Source of the DNA: a virus
DNA length: 64,000 nucleotides
Reading direction: 5' to 3' (one strand)
IMG/VR virus record: IMGVR_UViG_3300017917_005108
Location: 1 to 64,000 of that record
The notes below the pieces were generated by a model. It was not told the DNA's origin and made no database searches. It worked only from the letters and a program-made list of their open reading frames with translations. Shown here piece by piece: positions 236 to 26,072 of the stretch (the stretch's first letter is position 1; each line of letters opens with the position of its first letter). Both the position numbers and the translations under genes were made by a program.

Positions 236-282
236 TATGAAAATTTATTCCAATCAAAATGTAAATACAGAAAATAATGCAT

Positions 283-9854: not shown

Positions 9855-10618
9855 ATTAAAGCATTATTGTAATATGGATTGAGCGGTATAAACTTTTGCA
9901 AAATAGACATTTTTTCACTAAAATTATCAATTTTGTGCAATTTATTAAAAAGTAAATAGTTAACAGGATGAATTATTAAGCCATCTTTAGATATATCAAA
10001 AAATTTATAATTTTTATTTTTACCCAAGTTTAATATTGCGGCATTATTTAAATTGCAATGGTAGCCAATGGTTACATCTTCTTGATAGAATGGACATACA
10101 TTTTTTTTAAAGCTTTCTACTATTTTTACTGCAATTTGTCTACTTAAAAAATAGCATCCACCTACAGCATATTTGAAATTTCTATTATAGCCTGTATAGC
10201 TATTAAATGTTATCTGTGAATTTTTAGTTTTTAGTTTATAGTATTTTTCTGAATTTTTTAATCTTTTTTTGTGTTTATTAAAGCTCGTTATTATTCCTAT
10301 ATAATCTCTTCCTTTAAAATCTAATTTAGATAATACATCTAAATCTAAATATGTATCATCATCTACTTTTGCAATATAATCAAATCTTTTTGCAGAATTT
10401 AATGCATGTTCAATCATTTTAATAACTTTATATTTTATAGAAATATAGCTATCTTCTACATTAACGAGAATATATGGTAGATTAACATTTATACTATCAT
10501 TTTTACCGAGAAAAAAGTTAAATTCATACCCACTTTTAGAATAATATTTTATTAAAGACTTATGCTTATGTAAATTATTTTTATGCGTAATAATACCTAA
10601 ATAAATATTTTTATTCAT
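9851..10618 (-). CDS. GT31/Fringe-like glycosyltransferase
   Basis: FDYIAKVDDDTY, YAVGGCYFLS, EDVTIG, IIHP. Confidence 0.8.
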   Translation of the reverse strand: MNKNIYLGIITHKNNLHKHKSLIKYYSKSGYEFNFFLGKNDSINVNLPYILVNVEDSYISIKYKVIKMIEHALNSAKRFDYIAKVDDDTYLDLDVLSKLDFKGRDYIGIITSFNKHKKRLKNSEKYYKLKTKNSQITFNSYTGYNRNFKYAVGGCYFLSRQIAVKIVESFKKNVCPFYQEDVTIGYHCNLNNAAILNLGKNKNYKFFDISKDGLIIHPVNYLLFNKLHKIDNFSEKMSILQKFIPLNPYYNNALI

Positions 10619-10702
10619 TTACTATATTTTTAATACTTAGCCTTCTAATTACTAGAAATCAATATAACTAGACTTCTAAATTTTTACTTATAAATTATAT
10701 AA

Positions 10703-12103
10703 ATGAGTGGTTTTTTAGTCACTAATAAAAATATAAATGATAATAATTTAGAAAAGGTAAATTTTTTTTTAAAAAAAAGAGGACCAGATGAAACTACATT
10801 TTCTAATTACGATGATTTATCTATTATCTTTAATTTAAACAACATAAGCAATAATATATGTAGGTATCCGTTTATTCGTGATAATATTTTAATTTTACTT
10901 GACGGAGAAGTCTTTAATTATAGAGACATTTATAAAGAATCTAACTCTTGTTGTGAAAGCATTTTTCATAATTACAAAAACAAAAGAAAAAATTTCTTGA
11001 ATGGTATTGATGGTGAATATGCTATTGTTTTAGTTGATTTTAATAAAAATTTAATCTACGCTACTACAGATTTATTTGAAACAAAACCATTATATATAAG
11101 CATTCAGGATGAAAGCTTTGGAATCAGCTCTCTTCCTAGTGCACTTAAAGCACTTGGATTTAAAAAAATAAAAAATTTTAGAAGTAATTGTGCTCTTGAG
11201 TTTAATCTCAAAAATAAAAAAATTCAAGATATGTATAGTTATTATAAATTTGATATTAATAATGAGCACAAAAAACATTTTGAAGACTGGCATATAGCTT
11301 TTGAAAATGCTGTAAAAAAAAGAGTATCATCTTTGCTACCCACAAGTAATATATGCTTGTCTCTGAGTGAGGGCTATGATAGTGGAGCTGTCGCTGCTAG
11401 TTTTAAGAAGTTTGATATATCTTGTTTTTATTTCTCTTACATTACTCAATTGAATAACCCTGAAGTTTTAAATTATAGACATGATATTGATACTAATCTT
11501 CCTTTAAATAAGAATGGTGAATTATTTATAAGCCCAAATTTTAAAAATAAAAAATTAATACCTATCGATGATAAAACATTTAATATTAGCAAAGCATTAT
11601 ATAAAAGCTTAAATGAAAGTTTTTATTATATAACTTACTTAAATAACGGTACTTTAGTTAAGCGCAAAGGTGATAATCATTTTATGACGTTCATTTATTA
11701 TAGTTTTTATAATTTTATAAAGAATAATAAAATAAAAGTAGGATTTACTGGTATTTCTGGTGACGGAGTAGCATACCCTAACGTAAATGAAATAATTAAA
11801 AAATATAATAGCATACTGCCTATTGCAAACGGCGGAGCAGGAAGCAATCTTCAAGCAAGTATAATATTTGGTAATTTAGGTGTTGAAAGTAGATCTCCTT
11901 TTACAGACCCTGCGCTTCTTCAGGAAAGTCTATGGATGGATAAGAGTGTTTATAGAAATGAAAATAATAATTTAAAAGCCCCTATTCATGATTATCTAGA
12001 AAAAGAAAAATTTCCATTTTATTCTAGAGACAAAACCGGTAAACTAAAGCATGAAAAATATGGATTTGGAAATTACTTAAACTTTAACATTTTATGTGAC
12101 TAA
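10703..12103 (+). CDS. Asparagine synthetase-like amide ligase (degenerate Ntn domain)
   Basis: RGPD, DGEVFNY, IDGEYAI, KPLY, LSLSEGYDSG PP-loop, TGISGD, GVESRSPFTD; N-terminus MSG rather than MCG. Confidence 0.8.
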   Translation: MSGFLVTNKNINDNNLEKVNFFLKKRGPDETTFSNYDDLSIIFNLNNISNNICRYPFIRDNILILLDGEVFNYRDIYKESNSCCESIFHNYKNKRKNFLNGIDGEYAIVLVDFNKNLIYATTDLFETKPLYISIQDESFGISSLPSALKALGFKKIKNFRSNCALEFNLKNKKIQDMYSYYKFDINNEHKKHFEDWHIAFENAVKKRVSSLLPTSNICLSLSEGYDSGAVAASFKKFDISCFYFSYITQLNNPEVLNYRHDIDTNLPLNKNGELFISPNFKNKKLIPIDDKTFNISKALYKSLNESFYYITYLNNGTLVKRKGDNHFMTFIYYSFYNFIKNNKIKVGFTGISGDGVAYPNVNEIIKKYNSILPIANGGAGSNLQASIIFGNLGVESRSPFTDPALLQESLWMDKSVYRNENNNLKAPIHDYLEKEKFPFYSRDKTGKLKHEKYGFGNYLNFNILCD

Positions 12104-12837
12104 TGAATTTTAAATCTTTTTTATTAAGCAATCAGGTCTCTACTTTTTTTAATAAGTATAAAAATATTATTGGTAATAATAATACCTTAGCTGTATTAAT
12201 TTCAAAAAATTATAAAAATAAAAGCACAATTTCTACTAAAATATACTGTGAACTGAGAGATAATAATGTAGATATATATAAAAACTTTTTTACAGATACA
12301 TTATTAATAGAACAGCTATTACCTTTTTGGAATAAAGATAGAGAATCTAGTCTTTGTGTTGGGTTAAAATATATAGAGAGTGAGAAAATATATGTTCCGT
12401 ACTTCCATATAAAATTTAATTATAATAAAATTATTAATTTAAATATCTATAAACCCGAAAAAAGTATATTACCAGAAAATAACCTTAGAGGGATATCTAT
12501 TGAATTTTACAAAACACCTGTCATTAAAAAATATTTTTATTATAACAGCATTTTAGAAAAAGAATTTTTTTCAAAAAAATTTAAATTACATCAACTTCCA
12601 TCTCATTTTGAATATACAGAGTACAATAATTTAAATAAAATGATATTTGTTTATGAAAATAATACAAATATAAAAACAACAACAAATATTTTAAAATTAA
12701 AAAACAAAAAAATTAATTCAGATATAAAATCTACCTATAAATTGTATAAGGTATTACCTTGCTTTTATGGAAAATATATCTCTGATGATGTTACCAGTGT
12801 TTACTGGTCTTTAACAAAGAAGAAACTATTATTTTAA
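12103..12837 (+). CDS. Hypothetical protein
   Basis: 244-aa ORF coupled to upstream stop (TAATG). Confidence 0.6.
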   Translation: MNFKSFLLSNQVSTFFNKYKNIIGNNNTLAVLISKNYKNKSTISTKIYCELRDNNVDIYKNFFTDTLLIEQLLPFWNKDRESSLCVGLKYIESEKIYVPYFHIKFNYNKIINLNIYKPEKSILPENNLRGISIEFYKTPVIKKYFYYNSILEKEFFSKKFKLHQLPSHFEYTEYNNLNKMIFVYENNTNIKTTTNILKLKNKKINSDIKSTYKLYKVLPCFYGKYISDDVTSVYWSLTKKKLLF

Positions 12838-13592
12838 GTATTAAACCATTGCTTGTCAAAGTTAGTACTACCGTCAGTTATCCTAAAATCTAAAGAAAAT
12901 CTTTTGCCTGTCGTAGTGTTTGTACTACCATGAAGAACATCGCTTCTAAAAATAACTGCATCTCCTTTATTCATATTATTTGCAACCCATGTAGTACTCA
13001 TTTCAGCAGGAGTAATATCTATTTTTGCATCTTGCCATGAACTTGAGGGGTTAACTGAATTAAAAGATGATTTAACTTTATCTATATAAGTCTGCAGGTT
13101 AGTGTTGCTCTCATCTGGTTTTACTAGGCAGAGAACACCATTATTCACTTCTAAGTCTTCTAGTGCAACCCAAATTGTATAAAAATAAGAATTTTGAATA
13201 AAGAAAAACCTATCACAATGCGGATAAGTACCGTGTGTATTTTGTGTTTTTCTTACCCATAAATGGTTTGATAGTACGGGATCTTTTAGAAATTTAAAAG
13301 ATTCAAACAAGGGACTATTTTTGATAGAGAAGTATAAATCAACGTCTGTATCAAAGAAGTATTGTTTTTGAAATTTAAATGTATCTTTAGCTTTGGAAAT
13401 ATTTTTAAAATAAAACATTCTTTTATCGTCTTCGAATTGCTGAATTATTTTTGTTAATTGAATATTGGATACATCCAGAGCATTTCTTAAATATACAAAG
13501 CTATTTTTTAAAAGATAATCATGATAATCAAAAAGTGTATAAAAAGGAGCATTTTCTATACTTACTTCGTCTCCAAATATTTGGGCATTCAC
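12834..13592 (-). CDS. PhyH-like 2OG-Fe(II) dioxygenase
   Basis: HCD...H triad, TIWVALED...NGVL, KGDAVIF...LHGS..N...RFSLDFR. Confidence 0.85.
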   Translation of the reverse strand: MNAQIFGDEVSIENAPFYTLFDYHDYLLKNSFVYLRNALDVSNIQLTKIIQQFEDDKRMFYFKNISKAKDTFKFQKQYFFDTDVDLYFSIKNSPLFESFKFLKDPVLSNHLWVRKTQNTHGTYPHCDRFFFIQNSYFYTIWVALEDLEVNNGVLCLVKPDESNTNLQTYIDKVKSSFNSVNPSSSWQDAKIDITPAEMSTTWVANNMNKGDAVIFRSDVLHGSTNTTTGKRFSLDFRITDGSTNFDKQWFNT

Positions 13593-13639
13593 TATATATT
13601 ATTTATTTTGTTTTTAAATATTATCTATTAAGTAATTGC

Positions 13640-14596
13640 ATGATTTATGTTGGTGATTTAGAAGCAGATTTGCATGAAAAGTGTAATTTAAAGTGCGTAC
13701 AGTGTTCACATAGTTCTCCTCATAGTAATTCAGATGATAAAAATTATAGTATTGAAGCATTTAATAAAGATTTAAATATATTATCAAAACATCTTCATAG
13801 TAGAGTTTTTAGAATTGTAGGTGGCGAGCCATTACTTAATAAAAATTTAGTAAAATTTATAGAAAATATTAAAAATGTAAAAATATCAGATAAAGTTTCT
13901 ATGTTTACTAACGGTCTATTAATTAGTAAAACGGATCCCAGGGTTTTTGAATTGCTTGATGAAATTAGAATTAGTGTTTACGATCTAGAGCCACAAAAAA
14001 TGATAGCTATTAAAAATAATATAGATTATTTAAAACAGTTTAAAAATTTAAATGTTGAATATAATTGTTTAAAAACATTTTTAGTTTTTAATATTGTTGA
14101 AAAAAATAAAAATCAAGAGTTAGTTAAAAAAATATTTGATAATTGTTATCATAAAAAAGACTCTTATAGTATTTTTAATGGTAAATTTTATAGGTGTTTT
14201 GCTGCGCGTAAAAAATATAATTTTTTGTCAAAACATAAAGAATTGGTAAAAGATGATTTTGAATACCTTAGAGATAACAAGCAAGACTATCTAAATATAG
14301 ATAAAAATGTAACGGAAGAATCATTGAAACAATTTATTTTTAATGATAATCCTTTATCAGCTTGTGCATGGTGTTTAGGCTGTTCTGGTAAAAAAATAAA
14401 AAATTATCAAATTAATCAAAGTGAGCCTGAGTATATAGGTACACTTGAGGACATAAATTTTAATGAAGGCAGCTCCTATGTAAGCAATTGTCTTTTGAGT
14501 TGGCATAGAAAAAAAGTTGAAGAGCTTAATAAGGATGAATTCTATAATTACGACTCTTTAAAAAGCTATAAAAAATCACATAGTACTACTTTTTAA
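13640..14596 (+). CDS. Radical SAM protein with C-terminal Cys-rich (twitch-like) domain (start revised to ATG 13640)
   Basis: CNLKCVQC, GGEPLL, FTNG, C...GKFYRC...CAWC; TAAGTA-N5-ATG. Confidence 0.9.
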   Translation: MIYVGDLEADLHEKCNLKCVQCSHSSPHSNSDDKNYSIEAFNKDLNILSKHLHSRVFRIVGGEPLLNKNLVKFIENIKNVKISDKVSMFTNGLLISKTDPRVFELLDEIRISVYDLEPQKMIAIKNNIDYLKQFKNLNVEYNCLKTFLVFNIVEKNKNQELVKKIFDNCYHKKDSYSIFNGKFYRCFAARKKYNFLSKHKELVKDDFEYLRDNKQDYLNIDKNVTEESLKQFIFNDNPLSACAWCLGCSGKKIKNYQINQSEPEYIGTLEDINFNEGSSYVSNCLLSWHRKKVEELNKDEFYNYDSLKSYKKSHSTTF

Positions 14597-15925
14597 TGAA
14601 GAAATGACTCCATCCAGCCTTGACTGATAATATGTCTTGAATTTAAATTTACTTAAAAACTTTATTATTTCTTCTTTTTTACTTTCAGCAAGCGTATAAA
14701 TCGATACTTCTGGTAGTAGAGAAGCTGATACTTCTGTAATTTTATCCTTTAAATTAAAATACGATACGGTATCTTTAACACCATTTTCGTGAATACCTTT
14801 TATACGTCCTCCTAAAGGCCCTCTAACTGTGTTTATAGAAAGATCTATATTATACTTTATACAAAATTCTATAATATTGGGTAATTCATATATGTTTTGT
14901 ATCATTGGACAAAAAGCTATTCCTGCAACACGGTTTAAATCATTAAAAAAATTAAAAGTTTCTAAAACTGTTTTTAAATTACCGTTTTTACGTATAAATG
15001 AATAGGTATTTTCATTTAGTGAGTCAAGACTAAAAATAAGTTTAAAATTTGGCAATGAGAGTACAGTTTCTTTTACTTTGTTATTTAAAATTGAACCATT
15101 AGTTGTTGCAAAAACATTAATATTGGGGTTCAAATTTAAAATTTCATTCCAAATTTTGTAATATATAGGAGTTAAAAATGGCTCACCGCCTAAAAAATTA
15201 CATACCTTTAAATGAGGTATAAACTCCTTAAGTTGATCTACAAAATTATTATCATAAACTTGTTTAAGCGGGTCTAATTTTTCTCTGTTTTTTCTTATAG
15301 ATGAAGAAAAATATCCACCGCACATAATACATTCATAATTACAAATATTAGTAATTTCAAATTCAAAAACTGATGGAAATTGGTTATTAGTATAATTAGA
15401 ATAAAAATCAAACTTATGTAGTAAGGAATTTTTAAAATTACCCGTTTTAATCTGATTAAAACATAAATCACATCCTTTTGAAAAATCAAACTCAGCTAAA
15501 CTTTTTCTCATATGATCTAGATAAGCACCAAACCAGACTTCTTTTATACTGTTTTTTGGAAAAGATCCTAAGCTAAACGATCTACTATAACAGCAAACAT
15601 TAATATTACCTGTTTTATCAAAATTTAGAGTAGTGTAAGGAGCATTACATATATATTTTCTTGAACTATGATTAGCATTAAAATACTTTTTAGCTAAAAT
15701 TTTATTGTTGAGCTGTGTAATAATTGTGGAACCTATTTTATCAGTAGAAAAATTTTCTAAAACAAAGTTGAAGTCGCTTACCCCACTATAATTTACCAGA
15801 TCAATAAATTGAGTAAAAAAAACTTTTAATTCTAAAGTATTATTATTTAAAGTTTTATACTTTTTAAAATAATCTTTTAAATCGTTTAATTTTTTTCTGT
15901 TTGCTGCGGTGAGGTTAAATGTCAT
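14576..15925 (-). CDS. Radical SAM protein with N-terminal twitch/SPASM-like domain
   Basis: CNAPY...GNINVCC...CDLC then CNYECIMC, GGEPFL, TTNGS, FSLDS. Confidence 0.92.
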   Translation of the reverse strand: MTFNLTAANRKKLNDLKDYFKKYKTLNNNTLELKVFFTQFIDLVNYSGVSDFNFVLENFSTDKIGSTIITQLNNKILAKKYFNANHSSRKYICNAPYTTLNFDKTGNINVCCYSRSFSLGSFPKNSIKEVWFGAYLDHMRKSLAEFDFSKGCDLCFNQIKTGNFKNSLLHKFDFYSNYTNNQFPSVFEFEITNICNYECIMCGGYFSSSIRKNREKLDPLKQVYDNNFVDQLKEFIPHLKVCNFLGGEPFLTPIYYKIWNEILNLNPNINVFATTNGSILNNKVKETVLSLPNFKLIFSLDSLNENTYSFIRKNGNLKTVLETFNFFNDLNRVAGIAFCPMIQNIYELPNIIEFCIKYNIDLSINTVRGPLGGRIKGIHENGVKDTVSYFNLKDKITEVSASLLPEVSIYTLAESKKEEIIKFLSKFKFKTYYQSRLDGVISSLKSSTM

Positions 15926-17079
15926 ATAAAAAATTCTGTAAAAATATCTTTAAATTTTATATTACTATTATTATCTTTTTCATTAATTTTACTAAAAAAA
16001 GTTTTAAGAGTTGTTTCTTTTGGCTTATCTAATAATTTAATTATTTTAAAAATTTTACTTTTCGGAAGCATTTTATTTGCATATGAATTATTTACATCAG
16101 ATAGAAATTCAATGTATTTTGTAAGCTTTTGTTTAACTAAACATTTTGTTTTATCAGGAAGAACATTTAAAAAATAATGTTTTGGAGATGACAAAATATA
16201 ATAACGTAAATTATCCTTACTAAGTAATTTTTCGTTATACCATTTATAATGAAAATCTGGTAATGTAAAGATATTCATATTAGTGATAACTGCCTGCACC
16301 ATAAATTTAATATTAGAATATTTTAATAATTCTATTCTATTTTTTTCTATATCACGCCATTTAGTTCCTTTTCTTATGTATTCTGCTCTTTCACCGTATG
16401 TGTCTAAGCTAGCTATAACCGTTGCGTTATTAAATTTATTTAAAAGCTCTAAAATTTCATTATTTAAAATACTTAAATTTGTTATAAAATTTATTTCTAC
16501 GTTTAAATTATTAGTGTTATACAGATGTTTTATCATTTCTAAGTATCCTTTCTGTAGCATTGATTCACCTGCTGCAAAATTAATAACTTTTATTTTTTTG
16601 CTAAATTGTTTAAATAAATCTAATTGAGCTTTCAAAGAAACAAAGCTTTTTAAAAGCTTATTAGAATTATTTGCTTTTTCTTCATAAAACATAGTACTGT
16701 ATTTAAAATTACAATACATACATTTAAAATTACATAAGTTTGACTCGTTGATGCTCCATACAATAAAATTTTCAAAAAATGTACCATCAAATGCAGTTTG
16801 CGCAAAATATTCATTTTTTTTATTTAAAATTTCTTCATTTAAAAAATTATTAATAGGTTGTGGTCCAGCAAAACAATGATTAAAACACTCTTTGCACGGG
16901 GTATTTTTAGTAAACGATACCCTTAATTTTTTTAAAACCTCTGAATTCCATAATTCATTAACATTGTCAGAGGTTTTTCCTACTAAAAATTTTTCATTTC
17001 CTGCTAATTTACAGCATGGGTAGACACTACCATCAGAATGATAAAACATATGTACCCAGGGCAATAAACAACTATTCAT
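15922..17079 (-). CDS. Radical SAM protein with N-terminal twitch/SPASM-like domain
   Basis: CLLPW...GSVYPCC...CKECFNHC then CNFKCMYC, AAGES, ITNLS, YIRKGTKW. Confidence 0.92.
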   Translation of the reverse strand: MNSCLLPWVHMFYHSDGSVYPCCKLAGNEKFLVGKTSDNVNELWNSEVLKKLRVSFTKNTPCKECFNHCFAGPQPINNFLNEEILNKKNEYFAQTAFDGTFFENFIVWSINESNLCNFKCMYCNFKYSTMFYEEKANNSNKLLKSFVSLKAQLDLFKQFSKKIKVINFAAGESMLQKGYLEMIKHLYNTNNLNVEINFITNLSILNNEILELLNKFNNATVIASLDTYGERAEYIRKGTKWRDIEKNRIELLKYSNIKFMVQAVITNMNIFTLPDFHYKWYNEKLLSKDNLRYYILSSPKHYFLNVLPDKTKCLVKQKLTKYIEFLSDVNNSYANKMLPKSKIFKIIKLLDKPKETTLKTFFSKINEKDNNSNIKFKDIFTEFFI

Positions 17080-18313
17080 AATTTAAAACTTTAAATTCTG
17101 GAAAAACATTACATAAATTTATCTTTCGTGATGCATCAAGTTTTTTATTAAAATCAATAAAACCTCTAAGTTGATTGCTTTTATCTTCTTTAAACATGTA
17201 TGATATAAAATTTTTATATTCTTTTACGCTTTTATCGTGGTAAAAATTATATATACCATCTTCTTTTATTGACTCCAACCATTTTATATGCGAATTATAT
17301 TTTTCTGCAATCTTAACTTTTAATAAAGCAGGTAACAGTTGAACTGTGTGATCATCTTTAAATACAGGATTTAATCTAAATCTATTTGCTTTAATATAAC
17401 CTTTATTAAAAAATTCTCTATGAAGGTCAGGAACATGAAGTGCATTAATAGCACTTACAGCAGTATAAAGGTGTAGCTCTACTTGTGGAGCTATTTCTAA
17501 AAGATCTTGTATGTTTTGCTCAATAGTTGCCCATAATCCAGCGTTATCATAGCCTCTTATATATTGATTACATTCTCTTAACCCATCGATACTCATTAAA
17601 ATAATAACTTTTTTAAAGCAGGATAATTTCTTAAAAATATCTACACCTTTAAAAAACCTGGTGCTCATGTTTGTATTATATAAAAGATGAACATCTAGAA
17701 TATTATTATCAATAAGGTAGTTTAAAACATCAATATTTTCGCTTGTGAGAAATGGTTCACCAGCTGAACTCATGTGTATAAGTTTTGCATTCTTAAGTTG
17801 AGGTTTAATTTGATTTAAAAATTTTTGTTTTAATTCTGTTGAAATATTGTAGAAATTAACATCAATTTTTTTGTTAAAAAGTTCCTCTGATTCTTTTATC
17901 CAACTACTACTTCTCTCTGGCTCGCACATTCTACACTTAAAATTACATAAATTAGTAAAACTAAGATGTATATATTTTTTTGGTAGTTTAAAAAACAAAT
18001 TTTCAATTACATATTTTTTAATAAATTCTTTAAAATAATAATTACCCCAATTTCTGGGTGATTTATATCCTATATCCTCATACATTTTGCACATTTTACA
18101 GCAATTTAAAAAATTTTTTTTTCTGCTTCTGCTTTTCATTAGTAATTTAATTCTAGAGAAAAAAGTATTTGTTTCTATTTCTTCAGCATTTAGCTTAAAT
18201 AAGCTATTTTTTTCAGAAAAGGTAAACTCCTTTCTCCACATGCATGGGCAAGGCGAGTAGTACCCGTGTAGATTTCTAAATCCTATCCAAGGAAATATGC
18301 AGAATTTTGCCAC
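17072..18313 (-). CDS. Radical SAM protein with N-terminal twitch-like domain
   Basis: FCIFPW...SPC...CKMC then CNFKCRMC, AGEPFL, YNTN, MSIDG. Confidence 0.92.
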   Translation of the reverse strand: MAKFCIFPWIGFRNLHGYYSPCPCMWRKEFTFSEKNSLFKLNAEEIETNTFFSRIKLLMKSRSRKKNFLNCCKMCKMYEDIGYKSPRNWGNYYFKEFIKKYVIENLFFKLPKKYIHLSFTNLCNFKCRMCEPERSSSWIKESEELFNKKIDVNFYNISTELKQKFLNQIKPQLKNAKLIHMSSAGEPFLTSENIDVLNYLIDNNILDVHLLYNTNMSTRFFKGVDIFKKLSCFKKVIILMSIDGLRECNQYIRGYDNAGLWATIEQNIQDLLEIAPQVELHLYTAVSAINALHVPDLHREFFNKGYIKANRFRLNPVFKDDHTVQLLPALLKVKIAEKYNSHIKWLESIKEDGIYNFYHDKSVKEYKNFISYMFKEDKSNQLRGFIDFNKKLDASRKINLCNVFPEFKVLNYE

Positions 18314-18362
18314 AGAAATATTTACATGCTTTATAGTTGTTTACTAGCTGATAAATATAACT

Positions 18363-19649
18363 GTGAAGGTTACGGAAGAACAAAAACAATTCTTAATACA
18401 AAAAAGCAATATTTTCTGTCTTTCACCTTTCATGGGTAATAAACAATATTTTAATTACTTTTCACCTTGTTTGTCTGAATGGAGAGATCACCATTTTGTG
18501 GAAGACAACGATTTAAAAATATATGATGCTAATGAGATTATTAACTTGGAAAAATACAACAAACTGCGTCTTGCAATGCTAAAAAATGATACAACTTGTA
18601 AAGAATTAGATAGATGTAAAATGTGTAAAATGTTTCAATCTGCCGGATCTAGATGTTCTAGAGAATGGAGTAATTATTATTATGCTGATATTTTTGATGA
18701 AATATTAGATAATATAGATGATGATGGTTCATTAAAAGACCCAAATAAAATTTATTATGTACATCTTTCTTATACAAATACATGCAATTACAAGTGTAGA
18801 TATTGCGAACCGGAGCGCTCAGGTGCACTAACAAGCGAATTTAAAGCTTTAAAGAAAAATATTAATTATACAGTAGATACAGAAAAAAAAGATTTTTTTA
18901 AAAAACAATTATTTGAAAAATGGAAGCCAAAGCTACTGTCTACCAGGCTGATACATTTTACCTGTAGTGGCGAAGCATTATTGACCCAGGAAAATATAGA
19001 TGTAATGAATTTTTTAATTGAAAATAATAAAACAGATGTTCATTTACTATATAATACAAACTTATCTGTAAGAACATTTAATAATGTAGATATTTTTAAT
19101 CTGTGGAGCAAATTTAAAAAAGTAATAGTTTTAGTTTCTGCAGAAGGTTTAGATCCTTACAATAAAATTATTAAAGGTTCACCTTGTTCATTCAAAACAG
19201 TAGAAGAAAATATAAAAACTCTACGCACAATGCCTAATATTGTTTTAAATGTTCATGCAACTTACGGTGCACATAATATGTTACATCTTCCTTACTTTCA
19301 TAGATATTTATACGAACAAAAATTAATAAAAGCTAATGAATTTTATTTAAATCCTTTATTTCAAGACCCTGAAAGCGTACAAATTTACCCTCAATATATG
19401 AAGAAAAAGACAGAAGCAGTATTTTTAAAGCATATAGAATGGTTAAACTCAATAAATGAAGAGGGTATAGTAAATTTTTATTTTAATAAAAGCAATATAG
19501 AATATGAAAATGCTATTAAATTTATGTACTCTGCTGATAAAACAAATTTAATAAAAGATTATATACAGGGTTATATAGATATAGATAAATTTAGAAAAAC
19601 AGATTCTTTTGTTCTCGAAGAGTTAAAGCTTTTAAAGATGCACACTTGA
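18363..19649 (+). CDS. Radical SAM protein with N-terminal twitch-like domain (paralog of 17072..18313)
   Basis: FCLSPF...SPC...CKMC then CNYKCRYC, SGEALL, YNTN. Confidence 0.92.
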   Translation: MKVTEEQKQFLIQKSNIFCLSPFMGNKQYFNYFSPCLSEWRDHHFVEDNDLKIYDANEIINLEKYNKLRLAMLKNDTTCKELDRCKMCKMFQSAGSRCSREWSNYYYADIFDEILDNIDDDGSLKDPNKIYYVHLSYTNTCNYKCRYCEPERSGALTSEFKALKKNINYTVDTEKKDFFKKQLFEKWKPKLLSTRLIHFTCSGEALLTQENIDVMNFLIENNKTDVHLLYNTNLSVRTFNNVDIFNLWSKFKKVIVLVSAEGLDPYNKIIKGSPCSFKTVEENIKTLRTMPNIVLNVHATYGAHNMLHLPYFHRYLYEQKLIKANEFYLNPLFQDPESVQIYPQYMKKKTEAVFLKHIEWLNSINEEGIVNFYFNKSNIEYENAIKFMYSADKTNLIKDYIQGYIDIDKFRKTDSFVLEELKLLKMHT

Positions 19650-20621
19650 TAATGGTACAATAAAGCTTGAAGTTACATTATGTTTTAAAGAATATTTTTT
19701 AATTTTATCTTCAATTTCATTTAATTTATTAGCGGGTATTGATTTAAGAGCTATTTGTGATAGGTTTTCAGGGTTGTATTCAATTATAGTAGGTCTAAAG
19801 ACTATATAATTAGTCATAGTTTTAGAAGCTATTTCTATTATTTTTTCATATTCATAAATATTAAGCGTATTTAAATTTACATTTATTTTAGATATAATAG
19901 TTTCTGGTTTTAGTTCATTAAATGTTTTTATATTATTAATAACTTTGTTAAAATTTTTATAAATTCTTATTTTGCTGTAAGTCTCTTTAGTGCCTGCATC
20001 AATAGAAAAGGTCACATTACCATGAGGCACTTCTTTTAAAAAATTTGTTATTATTGTTTTGTTTAGAAGAGTACAATTAGTAATTATATCAATTTTAAGC
20101 GTGTTTTTAAAGGCTTTATAATTAATATAATTTAATATATTAAAGATATTTTTTTTATAAAATGGCTCAGCTAAGCCGGTAATTTTTAAAGTTTTTAAAG
20201 TTGATAAGTAGGGTTTAATTTTATCTAATATTTTGTATGTTAAATTATCATTCTGCGGTATAAAATTAAGTGATGATCTGGGACACATTAAGCATGCTGT
20301 AAATTTAGTTGGCGCAGGTCCGCCTATATTGCAACTATAATTGGGTAGCTCTATTTCTATGCTTTCTATTTCATTTGTATTAATACAATAATTTTTATGT
20401 AATATCATCTTTGGACAACCTAAACTATTAATACAATTATGATGAAATTTATTATTTAATAAATAGCTTTTGATATTATTGTTGGTAGCATTATTAATAA
20501 TTTCTTCTATGTTTTTTATAAAGATATTTCCTAACGGTATCTTTTGATAACAGCAATTAAAAACATTGCCGTGTGAGTCTATTTTTAAATTATTAAAAGG
20601 ATACAGGCAGCGTACACTCAT
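19632..20621 (-). CDS. Radical SAM protein, N-terminal twitch domain, non-canonical CX12CX2C motif
   Basis: CLYPF...GNVFNCC; CNIGGPAPTKFTACLMC; GLAEPF; ITNCT; FSIDAGTKETYSKIR. Confidence 0.85.
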   Translation of the reverse strand: MSVRCLYPFNNLKIDSHGNVFNCCYQKIPLGNIFIKNIEEIINNATNNNIKSYLLNNKFHHNCINSLGCPKMILHKNYCINTNEIESIEIELPNYSCNIGGPAPTKFTACLMCPRSSLNFIPQNDNLTYKILDKIKPYLSTLKTLKITGLAEPFYKKNIFNILNYINYKAFKNTLKIDIITNCTLLNKTIITNFLKEVPHGNVTFSIDAGTKETYSKIRIYKNFNKVINNIKTFNELKPETIISKINVNLNTLNIYEYEKIIEIASKTMTNYIVFRPTIIEYNPENLSQIALKSIPANKLNEIEDKIKKYSLKHNVTSSFIVPLSSVHL

Positions 20622-21088
20622 AAAAGTTTTAAAGAAAAAATTTCTTTTCTTGTTATTGTATCAAAAAATACACAAAAATAGTTTTTGCTGGTGTTTAAAT
20701 AAATCATAAACATGTAATTTTTTAAATTAAATTTAAAGATAATTTTATAAACAGCTACATAGTTTATACTTAAAAAATATATTAAATTATCATAAAAACA
20801 AATAAAAGCTTTTCTTGCTTTACAATAACTAAAAATAGTAAATTTTTTAGGCTTTATTTTGTTTTTTAAATTATATTTTTTAAGTTTTTTTATTTTATTT
20901 TTATCTAACTTTTTAATGCGTTTTATAAAACTGGACTTTAAAAACGATATATCGCAGTCCAAGCAATTTGTCTTCAATAAAAAATTTAGCTGTTTAAAAT
21001 ATTCGTTTCTTAAATTTTCGCAATTATATATTTCACTTGGACATTGCTTTTCTTTATTAAAAAAATTTTCTATTATTATAGGTGTCAT
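20618..21088 (-). CDS. Protein with N-terminal four-Cys domain (paralog of 8113..8292)
   Basis: FFNKEKQCPSEIYNCENLRNEY...L...NCLDCDI..LKS. Confidence 0.65.
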   Translation of the reverse strand: MTPIIIENFFNKEKQCPSEIYNCENLRNEYFKQLNFLLKTNCLDCDISFLKSSFIKRIKKLDKNKIKKLKKYNLKNKIKPKKFTIFSYCKARKAFICFYDNLIYFLSINYVAVYKIIFKFNLKNYMFMIYLNTSKNYFCVFFDTITRKEIFSLKLL

Positions 21089-21873
21089 AAGTACATCTTA
21101 TATTCTCTTAAAGCTGCTTTTAACGCTAAATATTTGTCAGCTGATATAGCGCCTAAGTCTTCATTTAATACAAAGTCATCGTAATTTTCTTTTAATTCAA
21201 AATTTTTATTAAACCATGGTTTTTTATTTCCAACAAAATGTAAAAAAATAGCACTATTTAATTTTTCTTTTGATAGAAAACTAGTGGTGATGAAATATTT
21301 TTGAGGCAAAAGAGTTAAGTGTTTTTTAAATATTATATTAAATGTAGCTTGATTGCCTAACCAAGAATATTTTTTTGCTGTATTATATGCATTTAAGAGA
21401 AATTTTTTATTTAAAAATTTTTTATTTATCAACATTACACCACAATTAAAGCCATCATTAAATCCTATATGTGGTATTTCTTCTTTTATCATTGGGTGGT
21501 GGCAAGCACCAAAGTCTAAATTAAAATCTAACAATTCCTGTATACTTCCTCTACAAATCATATCTACATCTAAAAATATTATTTTCTCAAAGTTTTTTAT
21601 AGTAAAAATTTCAAATCTGTTACCTGGATTTATTCTCCATTGCCTCATTCCAGAAAACTTTAAATTTTTATATCTTTTTTTGTTTATATCACAAACAGTA
21701 ATGTTGGAGTATATCTGTTTAATGGTTTTTATGTCTTTTTCATCTAAATTACCTTCGTTAAAAATAATATATGGTAAACAAATACCCGGGTTGTTTTTGA
21801 GAATACTTTTTAATAAAACTATAAATCCTGGTACATAGTCTTTTGTTAATGTTGAAACAAAGCACTGCTTCAT
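21085..21873 (-). CDS. GT8 family glycosyltransferase (start revised to ATG 21873)
   Basis: DYVPG...LLKSI, KIIFLDVDMI, FNCGVMLI, NQATFN, LHFVGNKKPW; TAAATA-N5-ATG. Confidence 0.88.
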   Translation of the reverse strand: MKQCFVSTLTKDYVPGFIVLLKSILKNNPGICLPYIIFNEGNLDEKDIKTIKQIYSNITVCDINKKRYKNLKFSGMRQWRINPGNRFEIFTIKNFEKIIFLDVDMICRGSIQELLDFNLDFGACHHPMIKEEIPHIGFNDGFNCGVMLINKKFLNKKFLLNAYNTAKKYSWLGNQATFNIIFKKHLTLLPQKYFITTSFLSKEKLNSAIFLHFVGNKKPWFNKNFELKENYDDFVLNEDLGAISADKYLALKAALREYKMYL

Positions 21874-21923
21874 TAAACTATTTACATTGAAAATTACATC
21901 ATCAATATTATAATAAAGCATAT

Positions 21924-22571
21924 ATGCATGTTGTTTTTTTAGTTCCTCATGCTGATGATGAAGTTTTGCTTGGTGGCGGCACTATATCAAAGCATAAGCG
22001 TTGTAATGATACTGTATCTGTATGTACACTGGAGGAAGGTACTACAGATAGAACAATTTGTCAGAATAATGATATTTATGAGGCCGCAAAAATTTTAAAA
22101 ATAGATAATATCCACTGCTTAAATTTAGATGAGGATACGATTAGCAATAAATTAGACATTTTAGCAAAAAAAATTGAAGAGTACCTCTCTTCACAAAAAA
22201 TAGATATATTATATACAGTTTCTCCTGCTGACAACCATCAAGATCATAGAGCTCTTATTAAAGCTGTTAATATTGCAACAAGAGTAATAGGCCCATGCCC
22301 TATACCTGTTATAAGATGTGGTGAAACTATATCCTCTACAGATCAAACATTTAAATGTTTAGCGGCATTTACACCTAACTACTATAATATTTTGACTAAA
22401 GATGATTTACAGAATAAAATTAATGCTCTTAAATGCTATAAAAAAGAATTTAAGTCTCAACCTCATCCGAGATCTACAGAAATATTAAAAGCGTATGCAG
22501 AAATTAGAGGTTCAGAGTGTGGGAGTATGTACGCTGAGGCATTTATGCAAATGCGTAAAATTTCTTTTTAG
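21924..22571 (+). CDS. PIG-L/LmbE family N-acetylhexosamine deacetylase
   Basis: PHADDEVLLGGG, HQDH, KINALKCY, YAEAF. Confidence 0.9.
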   Translation: MHVVFLVPHADDEVLLGGGTISKHKRCNDTVSVCTLEEGTTDRTICQNNDIYEAAKILKIDNIHCLNLDEDTISNKLDILAKKIEEYLSSQKIDILYTVSPADNHQDHRALIKAVNIATRVIGPCPIPVIRCGETISSTDQTFKCLAAFTPNYYNILTKDDLQNKINALKCYKKEFKSQPHPRSTEILKAYAEIRGSECGSMYAEAFMQMRKISF

Positions 22572-23326
22572 CTTTCGTACTTAAAATAGAGATAATTAAG
22601 ATAAGAATCAGGTAAAGGGTTATTTAAATCATACATTACTCTTGAATTCCACTTACCTGTAGTTACAGCTGTGCTGCACCAGTGTATACAATATCTTTCA
22701 TTTAAAAGATTAATTGAATCACTATAGTTATTCAAAAATTTAAATATTTCTTCCATACTATCATTACCAAAATATTTTTTATCTACAACATACGGTAATA
22801 AATTTTCTGATAATATTTGATTATAAAATATTTTCAATGGCTTTATATATTCATTATTATGTTCATTAATACATTTTTCAGTATTTTTTTTAAGCTTTAA
22901 AAGCATGTGGTAGTCTTTAGGTAATTTTATCGTATTAGATACAACTTTAAACTTATTATGTGGCTTAAGAACAATGTGCTTACTTTGAAAAAAATCACTA
23001 TTAAAATTCTTAATACATGTTGTATCAAAGTCTACATACCAGCCACCGTATTTAAATAATAATTCATATCTAAAAATATCAGAGAACCCTCCAATAGAGT
23101 TTAATGGACAATCACCATTGCCTTGATAATAAAAAACCTTATCTTTAGGTAAAATTTCATTTGCATCAGTTATGTTTAAGTTTTTATGCTTTAAATGATC
23201 AAAAGATTTTGAATTATATGTAAAAATATTAACTTTATGGTTATTGATTAGAAAGCTCTTTATATTTAAATTGTCAAATCTAGTGAGAGGTTTACCATCC
23301 CAGAAAAAATTAATATGGTTTTCCAT
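22568..23326 (-). CDS. GT32-like (DXD) glycosyltransferase
   Basis: FFWDG, DANEI, FSDIFRYELLFKYGGWYVDFD, IHW. Confidence 0.85.
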   Translation of the reverse strand: MENHINFFWDGKPLTRFDNLNIKSFLINNHKVNIFTYNSKSFDHLKHKNLNITDANEILPKDKVFYYQGNGDCPLNSIGGFSDIFRYELLFKYGGWYVDFDTTCIKNFNSDFFQSKHIVLKPHNKFKVVSNTIKLPKDYHMLLKLKKNTEKCINEHNNEYIKPLKIFYNQILSENLLPYVVDKKYFGNDSMEEIFKFLNNYSDSINLLNERYCIHWCSTAVTTGKWNSRVMYDLNNPLPDSYLNYLYFKYES

Positions 23327-24095
23327 TGTTTTTTCTGTGGTATTTATTTAAATTAGAATAAAATGTAGCAAGCCTGCTTTTTGAAAATTTAATAAATTCA
23401 TGAATATCTTTAGTAAAACAGTGACCTCCCCATCCAAATTTTTTATCCCTTCCAGGAACATCTAAGTGGGATGAGCCTATACGCTCATCTAATCCAAGCA
23501 TTTTAGTAAACTCTTTAAAAGTACTCCTTAATTTTAGCTTTTTATGTATTAAAAATAATTCATTAGCTAGCGTGACTTTTAAAGATAAAAATACATTTTC
23601 AGAGTATTTTATAAGTGAAGCTGTCTGTATGTCAGTGGTATGAACATTCTTAACTTTCCTAAGTCTTGATTTTAATATCTTGCAGACTGTTTTAGCAGCG
23701 GAAGACTGACCTCCGGCAATAATAAACTTTTGATTAATAAAGTCATGTATATTATTCCAATGTGAGAGATATTCAGGGCTATGAACCAATTTTAAGTGTT
23801 TAAACTGTTTTTCTGCATTTTTGTAGAAAATAGGTGACGCTGTAGATTTGCAACAAACCAATAATTCAGTAAACGTACTGTTTAATGCTTCTAAAATACT
23901 ATTTAATAGTTTAAAATTTTCATTTTTTGGTGTATCAACACAAACGAAGGCAATATCTATTTTTGTATTTTTAAACGTTTGAATAGTATTATTGTTATAT
24001 TTTGGATCAACTATATGAACAATGTCTTTTTTAAAAGCGGATGCAACAGCTTTACCGACATAGCCATAGCCAATTATTAAAACATTATACTTCAC
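23310..24095 (-). CDS. UDP-glucose/GDP-mannose 6-dehydrogenase family, short form
   Basis: GYGYVG, FVCVDTP, KST, SPEYL, KYSENVFL, DERIG, GWGGHCFTKD; C-terminal domain absent. Confidence 0.88.
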   Translation of the reverse strand: MKYNVLIIGYGYVGKAVASAFKKDIVHIVDPKYNNNTIQTFKNTKIDIAFVCVDTPKNENFKLLNSILEALNSTFTELLVCCKSTASPIFYKNAEKQFKHLKLVHSPEYLSHWNNIHDFINQKFIIAGGQSSAAKTVCKILKSRLRKVKNVHTTDIQTASLIKYSENVFLSLKVTLANELFLIHKKLKLRSTFKEFTKMLGLDERIGSSHLDVPGRDKKFGWGGHCFTKDIHEFIKFSKSRLATFYSNLNKYHRKNNGKPY

Positions 24096-24131
24096 TTAAC
24101 TATTATATAAGCTTTTTGCAGAATTACAATA

Positions 24132-25481
24132 TTAAAAATTAAGATTTACCGGAGCCGGCTGTAAGACTGCTGGCCAGTTAGTTATAACATCTAATATACT
24201 GTAGTTATTAAAATTTTCTGAAAAAGATTTTATAGAATCGTTGATTAGTTCTTTTAGTTCTGTAATATCTTTTAAAACATTACTATCAGTAATATCGTTT
24301 TCGTCATCTAAAAATTTAAATATTTCTTTCTTTCTTTCTTCAAGATACTTTAATTTACTGTTAAAAATTTGCAATTTTATATCTTTTTGTTCTTCAGAAA
24401 GACTATCAGTTTCAAATAATTTTTTAACACTATTAACAGATAAATTGTTATCTGGTACATATATATTAATAGCTTTAATAAGTCTAAGAAGATAGTCATT
24501 TATTGCATAAAATTCAATACGCTTGTCTTCATAATCATTAGTAATAATTTTAATATCCTCACTACTATCTAAGCTAGCAGATGAATCTTTTGTGAGAACA
24601 TAAGTAGAGGTCTCTAAGTTAAAATTATTAAATGGCCAATAAAAGAATACATCGTCAATATTTTTAAAAACTGATAACTCTTCTATAAAATTTACTTTTG
24701 ATATTTTCTCAATTTCATTTTTATAACTGGCTTTTAAAAATCTACTATCTGTATTTTTCTCTGATAAATTTTCTATTTTTTTATTAAGCAAATCAATATA
24801 TTCTTCTCTCTTTTTTGACAAAACTGTATTCCAACAAGCTTTAATAAGTTCTCTTCTTTTATAATCGTCGACTTCGTTAATAACAGAAAGCTGAACTTCT
24901 TTATCAAAATGATATAGAATGTTAGCAATAGGTTGGCTTAGAGCGTCGATAACTTTTTTATTTTTAGAATAAAAAGCTTCTGCAAGAGCACCATCATACC
25001 TAACAATTAATAGGTCTAAGGTATCCATGTTAACATTGACTGGCTCGCCTAACATAGCATTACTTCTAAAAGCATCTATAATTTTTAACTCAATATCTGT
25101 ATTGCGTTGATAAGATACTTTTTGTGTTTTTCTTATTAACTTAAGTCTATCTATAATATACTTACAGTTTGATATTACATCATCTTTTAAAAAGTTACCT
25201 GGGGTTTGACCTGTAGGTATGCTTATAAAAATATTATATGATATATCTTTATAATCTAATGTGACTAAATTACCGCTTTTTAAATCAATAAAAGTTATGC
25301 TATTTTCACCTACTATAATTTTATTAGTGGGTACTGTATCTAAGCAATATTCTAAAAGCTCTTTATTAAGGGTTGTGAAATAAAAATTTTCGTTTGAATC
25401 ACCAACTATATTAATTTGCAGAGATAGCCCCCTTACAAAATGTTCTATATCTTTTTTTGTTATTAAAATTCTATTGCTCAT
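24132..25481 (-). CDS. Hypothetical protein, possible tail-fiber chaperone with two helical units ending in WP
   Basis: DVFFYWPF and DVITNWPAVLQP; last gene of fiber run. Confidence 0.4.
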   Translation of the reverse strand: MSNRILITKKDIEHFVRGLSLQINIVGDSNENFYFTTLNKELLEYCLDTVPTNKIIVGENSITFIDLKSGNLVTLDYKDISYNIFISIPTGQTPGNFLKDDVISNCKYIIDRLKLIRKTQKVSYQRNTDIELKIIDAFRSNAMLGEPVNVNMDTLDLLIVRYDGALAEAFYSKNKKVIDALSQPIANILYHFDKEVQLSVINEVDDYKRRELIKACWNTVLSKKREEYIDLLNKKIENLSEKNTDSRFLKASYKNEIEKISKVNFIEELSVFKNIDDVFFYWPFNNFNLETSTYVLTKDSSASLDSSEDIKIITNDYEDKRIEFYAINDYLLRLIKAINIYVPDNNLSVNSVKKLFETDSLSEEQKDIKLQIFNSKLKYLEERKKEIFKFLDDENDITDSNVLKDITELKELINDSIKSFSENFNNYSILDVITNWPAVLQPAPVNLNF

Positions 25482-26068: not shown

Positions 26069-26072
26069 AAAC

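Follow-up and report, generated by a model that had tools for sequence, protein, structure and literature searches.

Six clustered radical SAM genes, five with an N-terminal twitch/SPASM-like domain, in a tail-fibre-adjacent island of an uncultured T4-like phage

Results

Organization of the radical SAM block

We analysed a window of 64,000 nucleotides, taken from the start of the 162,497-bp record of an uncultured T4-like phage (IMG/VR IMGVR_UViG_3300017917_005108). Positions 13,640 to 20,621 were filled by six back-to-back radical SAM (rSAM) genes, R1 to R6, with overlaps or gaps of at most 49 nt (Table 1), as an earlier note on this DNA had reported. All six matched the Pfam Radical_SAM family (PF04055), R1–R3 above and R4–R6 below the gathering score, and they were the only PF04055 matches in the whole record; this clustering in a single block is far beyond chance. 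The proteins were 22–41% identical (41% between R4 and R5), in line with the divergence already noted, and are old paralogues. Glycosyltransferases (GTs) and sugar-related genes were found on both sides of the block; Gmd and additional GTs lay upstream, and the tail fibres lay downstream. A candidate TAAATA box, resembling a T4 late promoter, was located 5 nt upstream of the GTG start of R4, and likewise of R5.

Table 1. Features of the rSAM block and neighbouring genes (L and P numbers denote contigs)
Feature	Position	Strand	Remarks
SGNH/GDSL-like hydrolase, partner family c1	8997..9854	+	c1 profile 1.3e-18; hhalign 97%
GT31-like glycosyltransferase (Galactosyl_T/Fringe)	9851..10618	-	kept in L161, L163, L164, L165 and P0135
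AsnB-like glutamine amidotransferase/amide ligase	10703..12103	+	Pfam GATase_7; also present in L165
u244, 244 aa, ABBA prenyltransferase (PT-barrel) fold	12103..12837	+	AF2 pLDDT 86
PhyH-family Fe(II)/2OG oxygenase	12834..13592	-	divergent from R1; Pfam PhyH 1.2e-12
R1, rSAM, normal domain order	13640..14596	+	318 aa
R2, divergent N_Twi relative	14576..15925	-	449 aa
R3, N_Twi_rSAM	15922..17079	-	385 aa
R4, N_Twi_rSAM	17072..18313	-	413 aa; opens R4-R3-R2 operon
Divergent intergenic region	18314..18362		49 nt; TAAATA box before R4 and R5
R5, N_Twi_rSAM	18363..19649	+	428 aa
R6, divergent N_Twi-like rSAM	19632..20621	-	329 aa
u156, 156 aa, translationally coupled between GT8 and R6	20618..21088	-	L163 orthologue 37% identity
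GT8	21085..21921	-	set common to L163 and L164
PIG-L deacetylase	21924..22571	+	set common to L163 and L164
GT32-like	22568..23326	-	set common to L163 and L164
UDP-glucose/GDP-mannose dehydrogenase-like	23310..24095	-	set common to L163 and L164
u449, u196, first tail-fibre gene (Mtd_N + Peptidase_S74 chaperone)	24132..27683	-	bound the island; order kept in L163 and L164

Domain order and cluster motifs

R1 exhibited the canonical order, with a core CX3CX2C motif near the N-terminus and a C-terminal twitch/SPASM-like motif (C-x11-G-x4-C ... CxxCxxC). Because its orthologues in related phage contigs L161 and L163 (64% identity) were 318 aa long, its true start was placed at M64 (position 13,640), as previously assigned. 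About 30 relatives of R1 were found on phage-sized contigs.

In R2 to R6, a domain with five or six Cys was located ahead of the core, which agrees with the N-terminal twitch/SPASM-like domain described earlier for five of the genes. R2 was characterized by a 90-aa extension, followed by the twitch/SPASM domain (residues 93–155; Pfam SPASM 3e-5) and the core (C195x3Cx2C; Radical_SAM 4e-13). R3 carried Cys at positions 4, 22, 23, 62, 65, and 69, with a SPASM match over residues 4–65 (3.5e-10) and a core at C116x3Cx2C; its AF2 model (pLDDT 93.7) consisted of an N-terminal Cys domain made of a beta-hairpin and helices, followed by a partial TIM barrel and, at the C-terminus, a helical domain. The core motifs of R4 and R5 were C123x3Cx2C and C141x3Cx2C, respectively. 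R6, which matched SPASM over residues 5–57 (3.7e-6), exhibited a non-canonical C97-x12-C110-xx-C113 in place of CX3CX2C, a spacing kept in its orthologue (53% identity). The GGE motif also varied as had been reported (GGE in R1 and R2, AGE in R3 and R4, SGE in R5, and LAE in R6).

Family membership and distribution

The NCBIfam model NF033640 (N_Twi_rSAM; cut-off 170 bits) was matched end to end by R3, R4, and R5 (225.6, 229.4, and 202.1 bits, respectively) and partially by R2 and R6 (147.4 and 94.8 bits). The latter two, which formed a separate deep branch in the tree, R2 grouping with cellular Bacteroidota copies, are divergent relatives of the family. R2 to R6 all followed its order of N-terminal Cys domain, rSAM core, and helical C-terminal region. 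R1 fell outside it.

The family comprised at least 8,351 clusters at 50% identity, and its ESM Atlas clusters were 95–100% viral. The expected occurrence of such enzymes in environmental phages was borne out, since 324 of the 333 family hits in 79 IMG/VR loci had this architecture; many of these loci belong to one lineage, so that their synteny is partly inherited and not independent. Arrays reached 12 copies, natural fusions of two or three units occurred, and one member was fused to a TPR protein-binding array. Our search found no characterised member, reaction, structure, or paper, and the family has a name only; the earlier note likewise named no assigned reaction.

Conservation of the island

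Each paralogue had orthologues at 53–78% identity in related phage contigs (61–62% for R2, 53–65% for R3, and 78% for R5 in L163, with none in L161), and the R4-R3-R2/R1/PhyH block was conserved, the PhyH position being kept in L161, L163, and L164. The gene encoding u244 was also conserved beside the rSAM genes in this lineage. The island, with one to five N_Twi copies and an R1-like gene beside Mtd_N/Peptidase_S74 fibres, recurred in five related contigs.

In an independent phage lineage, arrays of 7–12 N_Twi copies came after genes for a tail fibre, a protein resembling a fibre, and GT-like proteins, the GT calls being weak (c2 weakly GT8-like; c0 GT2-like by Atlas naming). Next to come were genes for an SGNH-like protein, a carbamoyltransferase, and an epimerase. 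Partner family c1 flanked N_Twi genes in 37 viral loci, in 11 cellular loci, and in the cultured Ralstonia phage RsoM2USA, whose N_Twi gene lay among three SGNH-like paralogues and a carbamoyltransferase. Cellular loci contained a UbiA-GT4-GDSL fusion, a sulfotransferase, a carbamoyltransferase, an epimerase, PhyH (L112), a GT2 (L126), a WelO5-like halogenase, and an ABC exporter; PhyH occurred in many copies, and its paralogues flanked N_Twi genes there too. Some single-copy cellular members were found in non-glycan settings, with haem genes (Vicingaceae) or MauG-like and Pirin genes (Reichenbachiella).

Comparison with characterised enzymes

In fold searches, the closest matches to the rSAM core were twitch/SPASM, viperin, and MoaA-type enzymes. 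The top VIA-align hit was the sugar-nucleoside enzyme BlsE (Z 13.5; rmsd 3.4 Å over 215 residues), with MoaA at Z 12.2. The phage enzymes had in common with the sugar twitch/SPASM enzymes BtrN, BlsE, AprD4, and DesII, and with the twitch-like prototype MoaA, a partial TIM-barrel core and the auxiliary-cluster signature CX9-15GX4C ... CXXC, and their genes lie in a sugar context. However, they differed from these enzymes in the position of the auxiliary domain (ahead of the core, not behind), in an extra C-terminal helical domain of ~80–130 residues, and in forming paralogue arrays where antibiotic clusters have single genes; identity was 14–17%, and scores against the NCBIfam BlsE and MoaA models were far below cut-off. 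The protein and RiPP maturases anSME, SkfB, CteB, SuiB, and ChlB (Z 11.2–13.2; 13.2, 12.9, and 12.5 for the first three) scored level with the sugar enzymes. The fold comparison thus does not tell rSAMs that act on sugars from those that act on proteins or peptides, and a specific BtrN-like relationship was not supported. The N-terminal domain matches Pfam SPASM as in the SPASM maturases, but the phage enzymes are permuted, lack RRE and leader-binding domains, have no precursor peptides encoded next to them, and carry enough Cys in that domain for one auxiliary cluster, not two.

The block was also considered as part of a characterised cofactor or nucleobase pathway, either QueE and 7-deazaguanine DNA modification or MoaA and molybdopterin. 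R1 and R3 gave weak partial matches with MoaA and QueE models, and the phage encodes QueC and QueD, which points in this direction; however, model scores were 13–57 bits against cut-offs of 200–325, QueE does not share the N-terminal twitch arrangement, MoaC was not found in the phage genome, and a separate 256-aa ORF at ~112.3–113.1 kb, beside QueD, matched five QueE models over its full length. The QueC/QueD/QueE-like set (87–113 kb) is separate from the rSAM block. Mapping of all six genes to such pathways, which the earlier note had named as contrary to its reading, was thus not found, and we rejected this explanation as highly improbable.

Discussion

Our leading interpretation, to which we give an even chance, is that the block encodes diverged rSAM tailoring enzymes of a glycan (glycoconjugate) pathway, located in a tail-fibre-adjacent "host recognition" island. 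Functional evidence is guilt by association throughout. The GT31, GT8, GT32, PIG-L, UDP-glucose dehydrogenase-like, SGNH-like, and AsnB-like neighbours count for this reading (the AsnB-like protein scored far below the cut-offs of NCBIfam asparagine synthase models), as do the lack of an RRE-like domain in the R3 model and of precursor-peptide arrays nearby. Tailoring of sugars or glycoconjugates is favoured because partners of the same kinds (GT-like, SGNH-like, carbamoyltransferase, epimerase, and PhyH) accompany the family in phage and bacterial lineages that are independent of each other. For the sugar substrates suggested in the earlier note, gene context is the sole support, although it recurs in independent lineages; the fold search does not discriminate.

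Observations against a sugar substrate include the TPR fusion, the non-glycan settings of some cellular members, and the ABBA fold of the adjacent, co-conserved u244. This protein had no match in Pfam, PHROG, or NCBIfam, but its Foldseek matches included LimF, PirF, PagF, and DciF (E down to 2.5e-7), and its top 19 VIA-align hits were all ABBA prenyltransferases (Z 11.3–14.8), a class whose acceptors, as far as known, are aromatics and the side chains of peptides rather than sugars.

The TPR fusion and the ABBA fold would suit enzymes that modify a tail fibre, another virion protein, or a small peptide by cross-linking, epimerisation, or side-chain oxidation, with the PhyH hydroxylase, u244, the AsnB-like ligase, and the GTs tailoring the same protein. 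LimF, PagF, PirF, and DciF are cyanobactin peptide prenyltransferases, the closest solved rSAM cores include the five maturases, and the genes always adjoin tail-fibre genes, with late-type boxes before R4 and R5. A conserved four-Cys 59-aa ORF at the island edge also counts for this reading, but this sole small four-Cys ORF lies ~5 kb from the block and is zinc-ribbon-like. Beside the arrays there is no conserved protein rich in Cys, Gly, or His that resembles a substrate, RRE-like domains and leader-bearing precursor arrays are missing, and the partners shared across lineages (carbamoyltransferase, SGNH-like, NAD-epimerase, GTs, and sulfotransferase) are typical carbohydrate-tailoring enzymes. 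We regard protein or peptide modification as possible but rather unlikely.

BtrN, AprD4, and BlsE are characterised sugar-acting twitch enzymes of small-molecule antibiotic pathways. The block could likewise make or modify a small molecule or lipid, such as a prenylated or aminoglycoside-like secondary metabolite or a polyprenyl-linked intermediate, in order to manipulate the host or competitors. The ABBA-fold protein and the resemblance of cellular loci to natural-product clusters (PhyH copies, halogenase, exporter, UbiA fusion, and carbamoyltransferase) are in keeping with such a product. However, the window contains no exporter, core scaffold synthase, or resistance gene, phage copies consistently sit between fibre genes and GTs, and late-type promoter boxes are better suited to virion assembly than to host manipulation, which makes this explanation improbable.

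A comparable setting has been described in the host-recognition cluster of pelagimyophages, where rSAM cassettes lie beside GTs and fibres (Zaragoza-Solas et al. 2020; PMC7029224); these cassettes receive one sentence there, with no family, architecture, or function. Both phages are T4-like and marine, with a hypervariable island combining tail fibres, GT8-type GTs, UDP-glucose dehydrogenase, and variable rSAM cassettes, but the present phage is not established as a pelagimyophage (gp6 ~25% identical to cyanomyovirus gp6).

Each enzyme would bind the SAM-cleaving [4Fe-4S] cluster in its partial TIM barrel. The twitch domain, which is N-terminal in R2–R6 and in its usual C-terminal place in R1, very probably holds one auxiliary [4Fe-4S] cluster. 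If the block does tailor a glycan, each paralogue would abstract hydrogen from its own sugar, or from its own position on a sugar, within the product that the neighbouring GTs and sugar-nucleotide enzymes build, the auxiliary cluster handling the electron so that epimerisation, dehydrogenation, deoxygenation, or a similar step results. The age of the paralogues and their separate orthologues, together with the natural fusions, point to steps that differ from one another but work together. Judging by a 6-nt motif in AT-rich DNA, the R4-R3-R2 operon and R5 probably belong to the late transcripts, along with the virion genes; the host envelope is an alternative target, but late transcription would make a virion protein, for instance a tail fibre, the most likely bearer of the modified glycan.

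Composition of the radical SAM gene block

The parent record measures 162,497 bp, is estimated to be about 77% complete and has the window as its first 64 kb. The source phage is a distant T4-like myovirus that encodes a clamp loader of the gp44 type, a baseplate wedge resembling gp6, DUF5856 and a dCMP deaminase; its tail fibres carry Mtd_N, Peptidase_S74 and Gp38 domains. Its gp6 shares only about 25% identity with cyanomyovirus gp6. Between 13640 and 20621, in a region with a GC content of 24-30%, six radical SAM (rSAM) ORFs, R1 to R6, are separated by overlaps or gaps of at most 49 nt. The start of R1 was placed at M64, since its orthologues measure 318 aa. The Pfam Radical_SAM profile (PF04055) matched all six ORFs and no seventh anywhere in the record, so their clustering is not a matter of chance.

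Coordinates of the features (positions in the record; those of the Que genes lie outside the window)
Feature	Position	Strand	Remarks
tmRNA gene	282-688	-	full length; Rfam RF00023, 96.3 bits; ARAGORN tag peptide unusual in length
Four-Cys ORF, 59 aa	8113-8292	-	CPx5C ... CxxC, zinc-ribbon-like; island edge; 72% identity in related phage contig L163, 46% in L161
u244	12103-12837	+	
PhyH	12834-13592	-	Fe(II)/2OG oxygenase
R1	13640-14596	+	rSAM
R2	14576-15925	-	rSAM, N-terminal twitch
R3	15922-17079	-	rSAM, N-terminal twitch
R4	17072-18313	-	rSAM, N-terminal twitch
R5	18363-19649	+	rSAM, N-terminal twitch
R6	19632-20621	-	rSAM, N-terminal twitch
u156	20618-21088	-	
QueC	87095-87730		
QueD	110572-110967		
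QueE-like rSAM, 256 aa	~112348-113118 (L008:1228-1998)		divergent; adjoins QueD; five QueE models match full length

Domain order, cysteine motifs and fold

PF04055 scores reached the gathering score of 29.5 bits for R1 (38 bits), R2 (50.3 bits) and R3 (45.6 bits), and were lower for R4, R5 and R6 (20.1, 26.1 and 24.3 bits, respectively). R4 and R5 nevertheless passed the full-length HMM of NF033640, an NCBIfam family (hereafter N_Twi) with a twitch domain N-terminal to the rSAM core: R3, R4 and R5 matched it end to end above the curated cut-off of 170 bits (225.6, 229.4 and 202.1 bits), with R2 (147.4 bits), R6 (94.8 bits) and R1 (28.7 bits) below it.

The SAM-cleaving [4Fe-4S] motif CX3CX2C is present in R1 to R5. 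R6 carries CX12CX2C instead, and the same spacing in a 53%-identical orthologue indicates a conserved variant rather than decay; a longer Cys loop has a precedent in the QueE model TIGR04508 (Cx14CxxC). The GGE-motif variants listed in the earlier note (GGE, AGE, SGE and LAE) were confirmed in the six sequences. In R2 to R6, five or six Cys stand ahead of the core motif, in an N-terminal twitch-type domain that was also recognized by the Pfam SPASM profile in R2, R3 and R6. In a 35-member alignment, C65 was invariant, and C4, C22, C23 and C69 were conserved in at least 90% of members; as judged from sequence, this set would suffice for one predicted auxiliary [4Fe-4S] cluster. R1 has the usual order, with the core followed by C-x11-G-x4-C ... 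CxxCxxC, a C-terminal motif with five Cys.

R3, the one rSAM of the six that was modelled with AlphaFold2 (pLDDT 93.7, pTM 0.92), showed a Cys-flanked beta-hairpin and helices at its N-terminus, in a twitch layout, ahead of a partial TIM barrel; its C-terminal domain is helical throughout. At least 40 solved rSAM cores aligned with this partial (beta/alpha)6 TIM barrel at Z ≥ 8.

Age of the copies and conservation in related phages

R4 and R5 share 41% identity; the remaining pairs share 22-30%, or BLAST finds no alignment between them. Their sequences mark the copies as old. In the tree, the R3 clade was sister to the R4/R5 clade, and R2 and R6 fell on a separate deep branch, joined by cellular Bacteroidota genes. 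Related metagenomic phage contigs hold orthologues of each of the six copies, at 53-78% identity. The order and orientation R4-R3-R2 / R1 / PhyH are the same in two of these contigs (L161 and L163); the presence of R5 and R6 varies. In more distant relatives, an R1-like gene occurs with one to three N_Twi genes; GT31, GT8, GT32, PIG-L or AsnB-like genes always accompany them, and Mtd_N/Peptidase_S74 fibre genes always lie next to them.

In the 49-nt divergent spacer between R4 and R5 (18314-18362), TAAATA boxes lie 5 nt ahead of both GTG starts. The motif alone hints at T4-type late transcription, and hence at a virion-associated role; its placement directly before the starts agrees with what the earlier note had recorded on late genes in this genome. 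TAAATA boxes were likewise observed upstream of 13592 and 26068; at all these sites they lie a few nt from start codons and leave little or no space for a Shine-Dalgarno sequence. Scanning for sigma-70 promoters gave no information in DNA this rich in AT (122 sites observed versus 127.5 expected).

Comparison with characterised radical SAM classes

The earlier note had raised the case that all six genes map to characterised cofactor or QueE-like pathways; this is contradicted by the QueE and MoaA models, which scored 13-57 bits against cut-offs of 200-325 bits. For QueE, R1 reached 21 and R3 26 bits (cut-offs of 260-300 bits), and a separate QueE-like ORF adjoins QueD at about 112 kb. Together with QueC, these genes point to a 7-deazaguanine synthesis pathway separate from the six-gene block, probably for DNA modification. 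For MoaA, the best score was that of R1 (57.3 bits; cut-offs of 231-325 bits), and no MoaC was found in the record at its estimated completeness.

The traits of RiPP maturases were also absent from the block. No PqqD/RRE match was obtained in R1 to R6, the C-terminal region of R3 is all-helical, and no precursor array was found near the block. The RiPP-type C-terminal SPASM domain with seven Cys (two auxiliary clusters) was lacking, given the position and Cys content of the auxiliary motifs of R1 to R6. A four-Cys peptide was rejected as substrate, the candidate being a single conserved small ORF, zinc-ribbon-like, located about 5 kb from the block and not adjacent to it.

The N_Twi family at large

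The family profile retrieved at least 8,351 cluster representatives (50% identity level) at E ≤ 1e-30. Among the top 150 representatives, 27 were two- or three-unit fusions, and such fusions were also present among the library representatives P0210-P0220. The ESM Atlas clusters near R3 were 95-100% viral. Across 79 IMG/VR loci, many of which share ancestry and thus are not independent observations, 324 of the 333 matches had four or more Cys ahead of a core motif that lay at residue 90 or beyond. Arrays of 7-12 paralogues on one strand were common, with array positions orthologous between contigs.

Deposited phage genomes are nearly devoid of the family. Neither blastn of the block nor tblastn of R3 gave a match in 50,697 such genomes, and a viral scan with R4 as query yielded no confirmed relative; the carriers found were Vibrio phages K566/K567, with four copies, and the Ralstonia jumbo phage RsoM2USA. 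Cellular homologues, for which a genome collection was scanned with a tighter alignment (A2), were mostly single-copy and came from Bacteroidota, Bdellovibrionota and a few others. One single-copy subfamily of about 350 aa, in Vicingaceae and other Flavobacteriales MAGs (L130, L133, L137), keeps synteny with hemB, hemL and hemE and with the genes for a ChaN haem-binding protein and an ABC transporter, which hints at another role for it, possibly one linked to tetrapyrroles. In the Elusimicrobia bin MJ-2014_bin-0981, dozens of N_Twi units were observed within ORFs of 600-1000 aa on many contigs (L092, L096, L099, L100, L102 and others); these may be multi-unit fusions or mis-binned phage DNA.

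NF033640 is already catalogued as a family; the arrays described here are of twitch/SPASM rSAMs with permuted domain order, within phage host-recognition islands. Literature searches on the family name, on N-terminal SPASM and on twitch with phage returned nothing relevant: no paper, reaction, solved structure or characterised member was found.

Gene context and candidate substrates

Within the window, the block lies in an island at 8997-25481 and is preceded by genes for an SGNH-like hydrolase, GT31, an AsnB-like ligase, u244 and PhyH, with Gmd, a GlcNAc-transferase and an FkbM methyltransferase farther upstream. It is followed by u156, GT8, PIG-L, GT32, a UDP-sugar dehydrogenase and then the tail fibres. 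Another large phage lineage (L009, L015, L017, L022 and others) carries 9-12 tandem N_Twi genes in fixed positional order. Conserved before these arrays are a tail fibre (partner family c6), a Thr/Ala/Gly/Ser-rich fibre-like protein (c4), c5, two copies of c2, c8 and c0; SGNH-like paralogues, a carbamoyltransferase and an NAD-epimerase follow them. Among these proteins, c2 and c0 bear DxD motifs: c2 is weakly GT8-like (hhalign probability of only 58%), and the nearest Atlas clusters of c0 are named GT2-like, hhalign giving no match for c0. No match in Pfam or PHROG was obtained for c0, c2, c4, c5, c7 or c8.

The SGNH-like family and the carbamoyltransferase again adjoin the N_Twi genes of bacterial loci and of RsoM2USA, where the one N_Twi rSAM, gp202, is flanked by a carbamoyltransferase and three SGNH-like paralogues of family c1 (gp199-gp203, all annotated as hypothetical). 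Moreover, on a complete Crocinitomicaceae chromosome, three N_Twi copies are accompanied by genes for a UbiA-GT4-GDSL fusion, sulfotransferase, carbamoyltransferase, epimerase, PhyH and WelO5-like enzyme. Such partners are typical of carbohydrate tailoring, and because they recur we favour sugar or glycoconjugate tailoring as the role of the block, a reading drawn from gene context whose probability we consider evenly balanced.

Two other readings were weighed against sugar tailoring: direct action of the rSAMs on a protein substrate, which we regard as rather unlikely, and a small-molecule or lipid product, which seems improbable. The fold of R3 leaves room for both. Foldseek and VIA-align did not separate sugar-acting from peptide-acting relatives: BlsE ranked first (Z 13.5), but anSME (13.2), SkfB (12.9), viperin and CteB (12.5) lay within 1 Z unit, with MoaA at 12.2, so the substrate class is not identifiable from the fold alone. 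The BlsE model TIGR04466, whose cut-off is 400, gave 16-23 bits, and a sequence search of the PDB gave weak core matches only (CteB, 1e-4; SkfB, 7e-3).

Both alternatives also draw support from u244, a gene conserved together with the block in this lineage. In the model of its product (pLDDT 86), ten strands form five hairpins, and the fold is clearly that of an ABBA prenyltransferase (PT-barrel): the top 19 VIA-align matches were all ABBA prenyltransferases (Z 11.3-14.8; 219-241 of the 244 residues aligned), and the next match had Z 8.9. The cyanobactin peptide prenyltransferases DciF, PatF and PagF led the matches, and aromatic prenyltransferases were also among the best. Invariant Lys, Tyr and Glu occupy alternate strand positions, as expected of a working barrel interior; in the model this is suggestive of putative prenyl-diphosphate binding and transfer. 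No Pfam, PHROG or NCBIfam match was obtained for u244. ABBA prenyltransferases are known to act on aromatic compounds and on the side chains of peptides as acceptors, and we know of no described ABBA prenyltransferase-like protein from a phage.

Two observations from the wider family likewise leave room for the protein and the small-molecule or lipid readings. Some single-copy cellular N_Twi genes adjoin genes for haem synthesis, or else MauG-like and Pirin genes, and one family member carries a TPR array. Apart from this array, the extra domains fused to N_Twi units had no PDB match, and none belonged to a partner family (Rosetta-stone test).

Implications for phage biology

Building on the carbohydrate reading, we tentatively propose that N_Twi enzymes might be a phage-borne toolkit for undescribed radical carbohydrate or glycoprotein chemistry. 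In this proposal, which we consider less likely than not, 5-12 specialised, sometimes fused paralogues would act in sequence on a virion-displayed glycan, on tail fibres or other parts, as a rapidly swappable means of diversifying or masking the host-recognition surface.

The N_Twi family is very large and almost wholly viral, its members occur in arrays of as many as 12 copies and in multi-unit fusions, and its genes lie in the most variable, host-recognition region of abundant aquatic phages. To our knowledge, the auxiliary domain follows the core in every characterised twitch or SPASM enzyme, and an assigned N_Twi reaction would therefore establish a new branch of radical SAM enzymology. 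The cultured carriers render the family testable, with RsoM2USA as a tractable model alongside K566/K567. Such an assignment would tell whether phages carry out chemical tailoring of glycans, be it on their own virions or on the host surface, a question that touches host range, superinfection exclusion and the large share of marine viral genes of unknown function.
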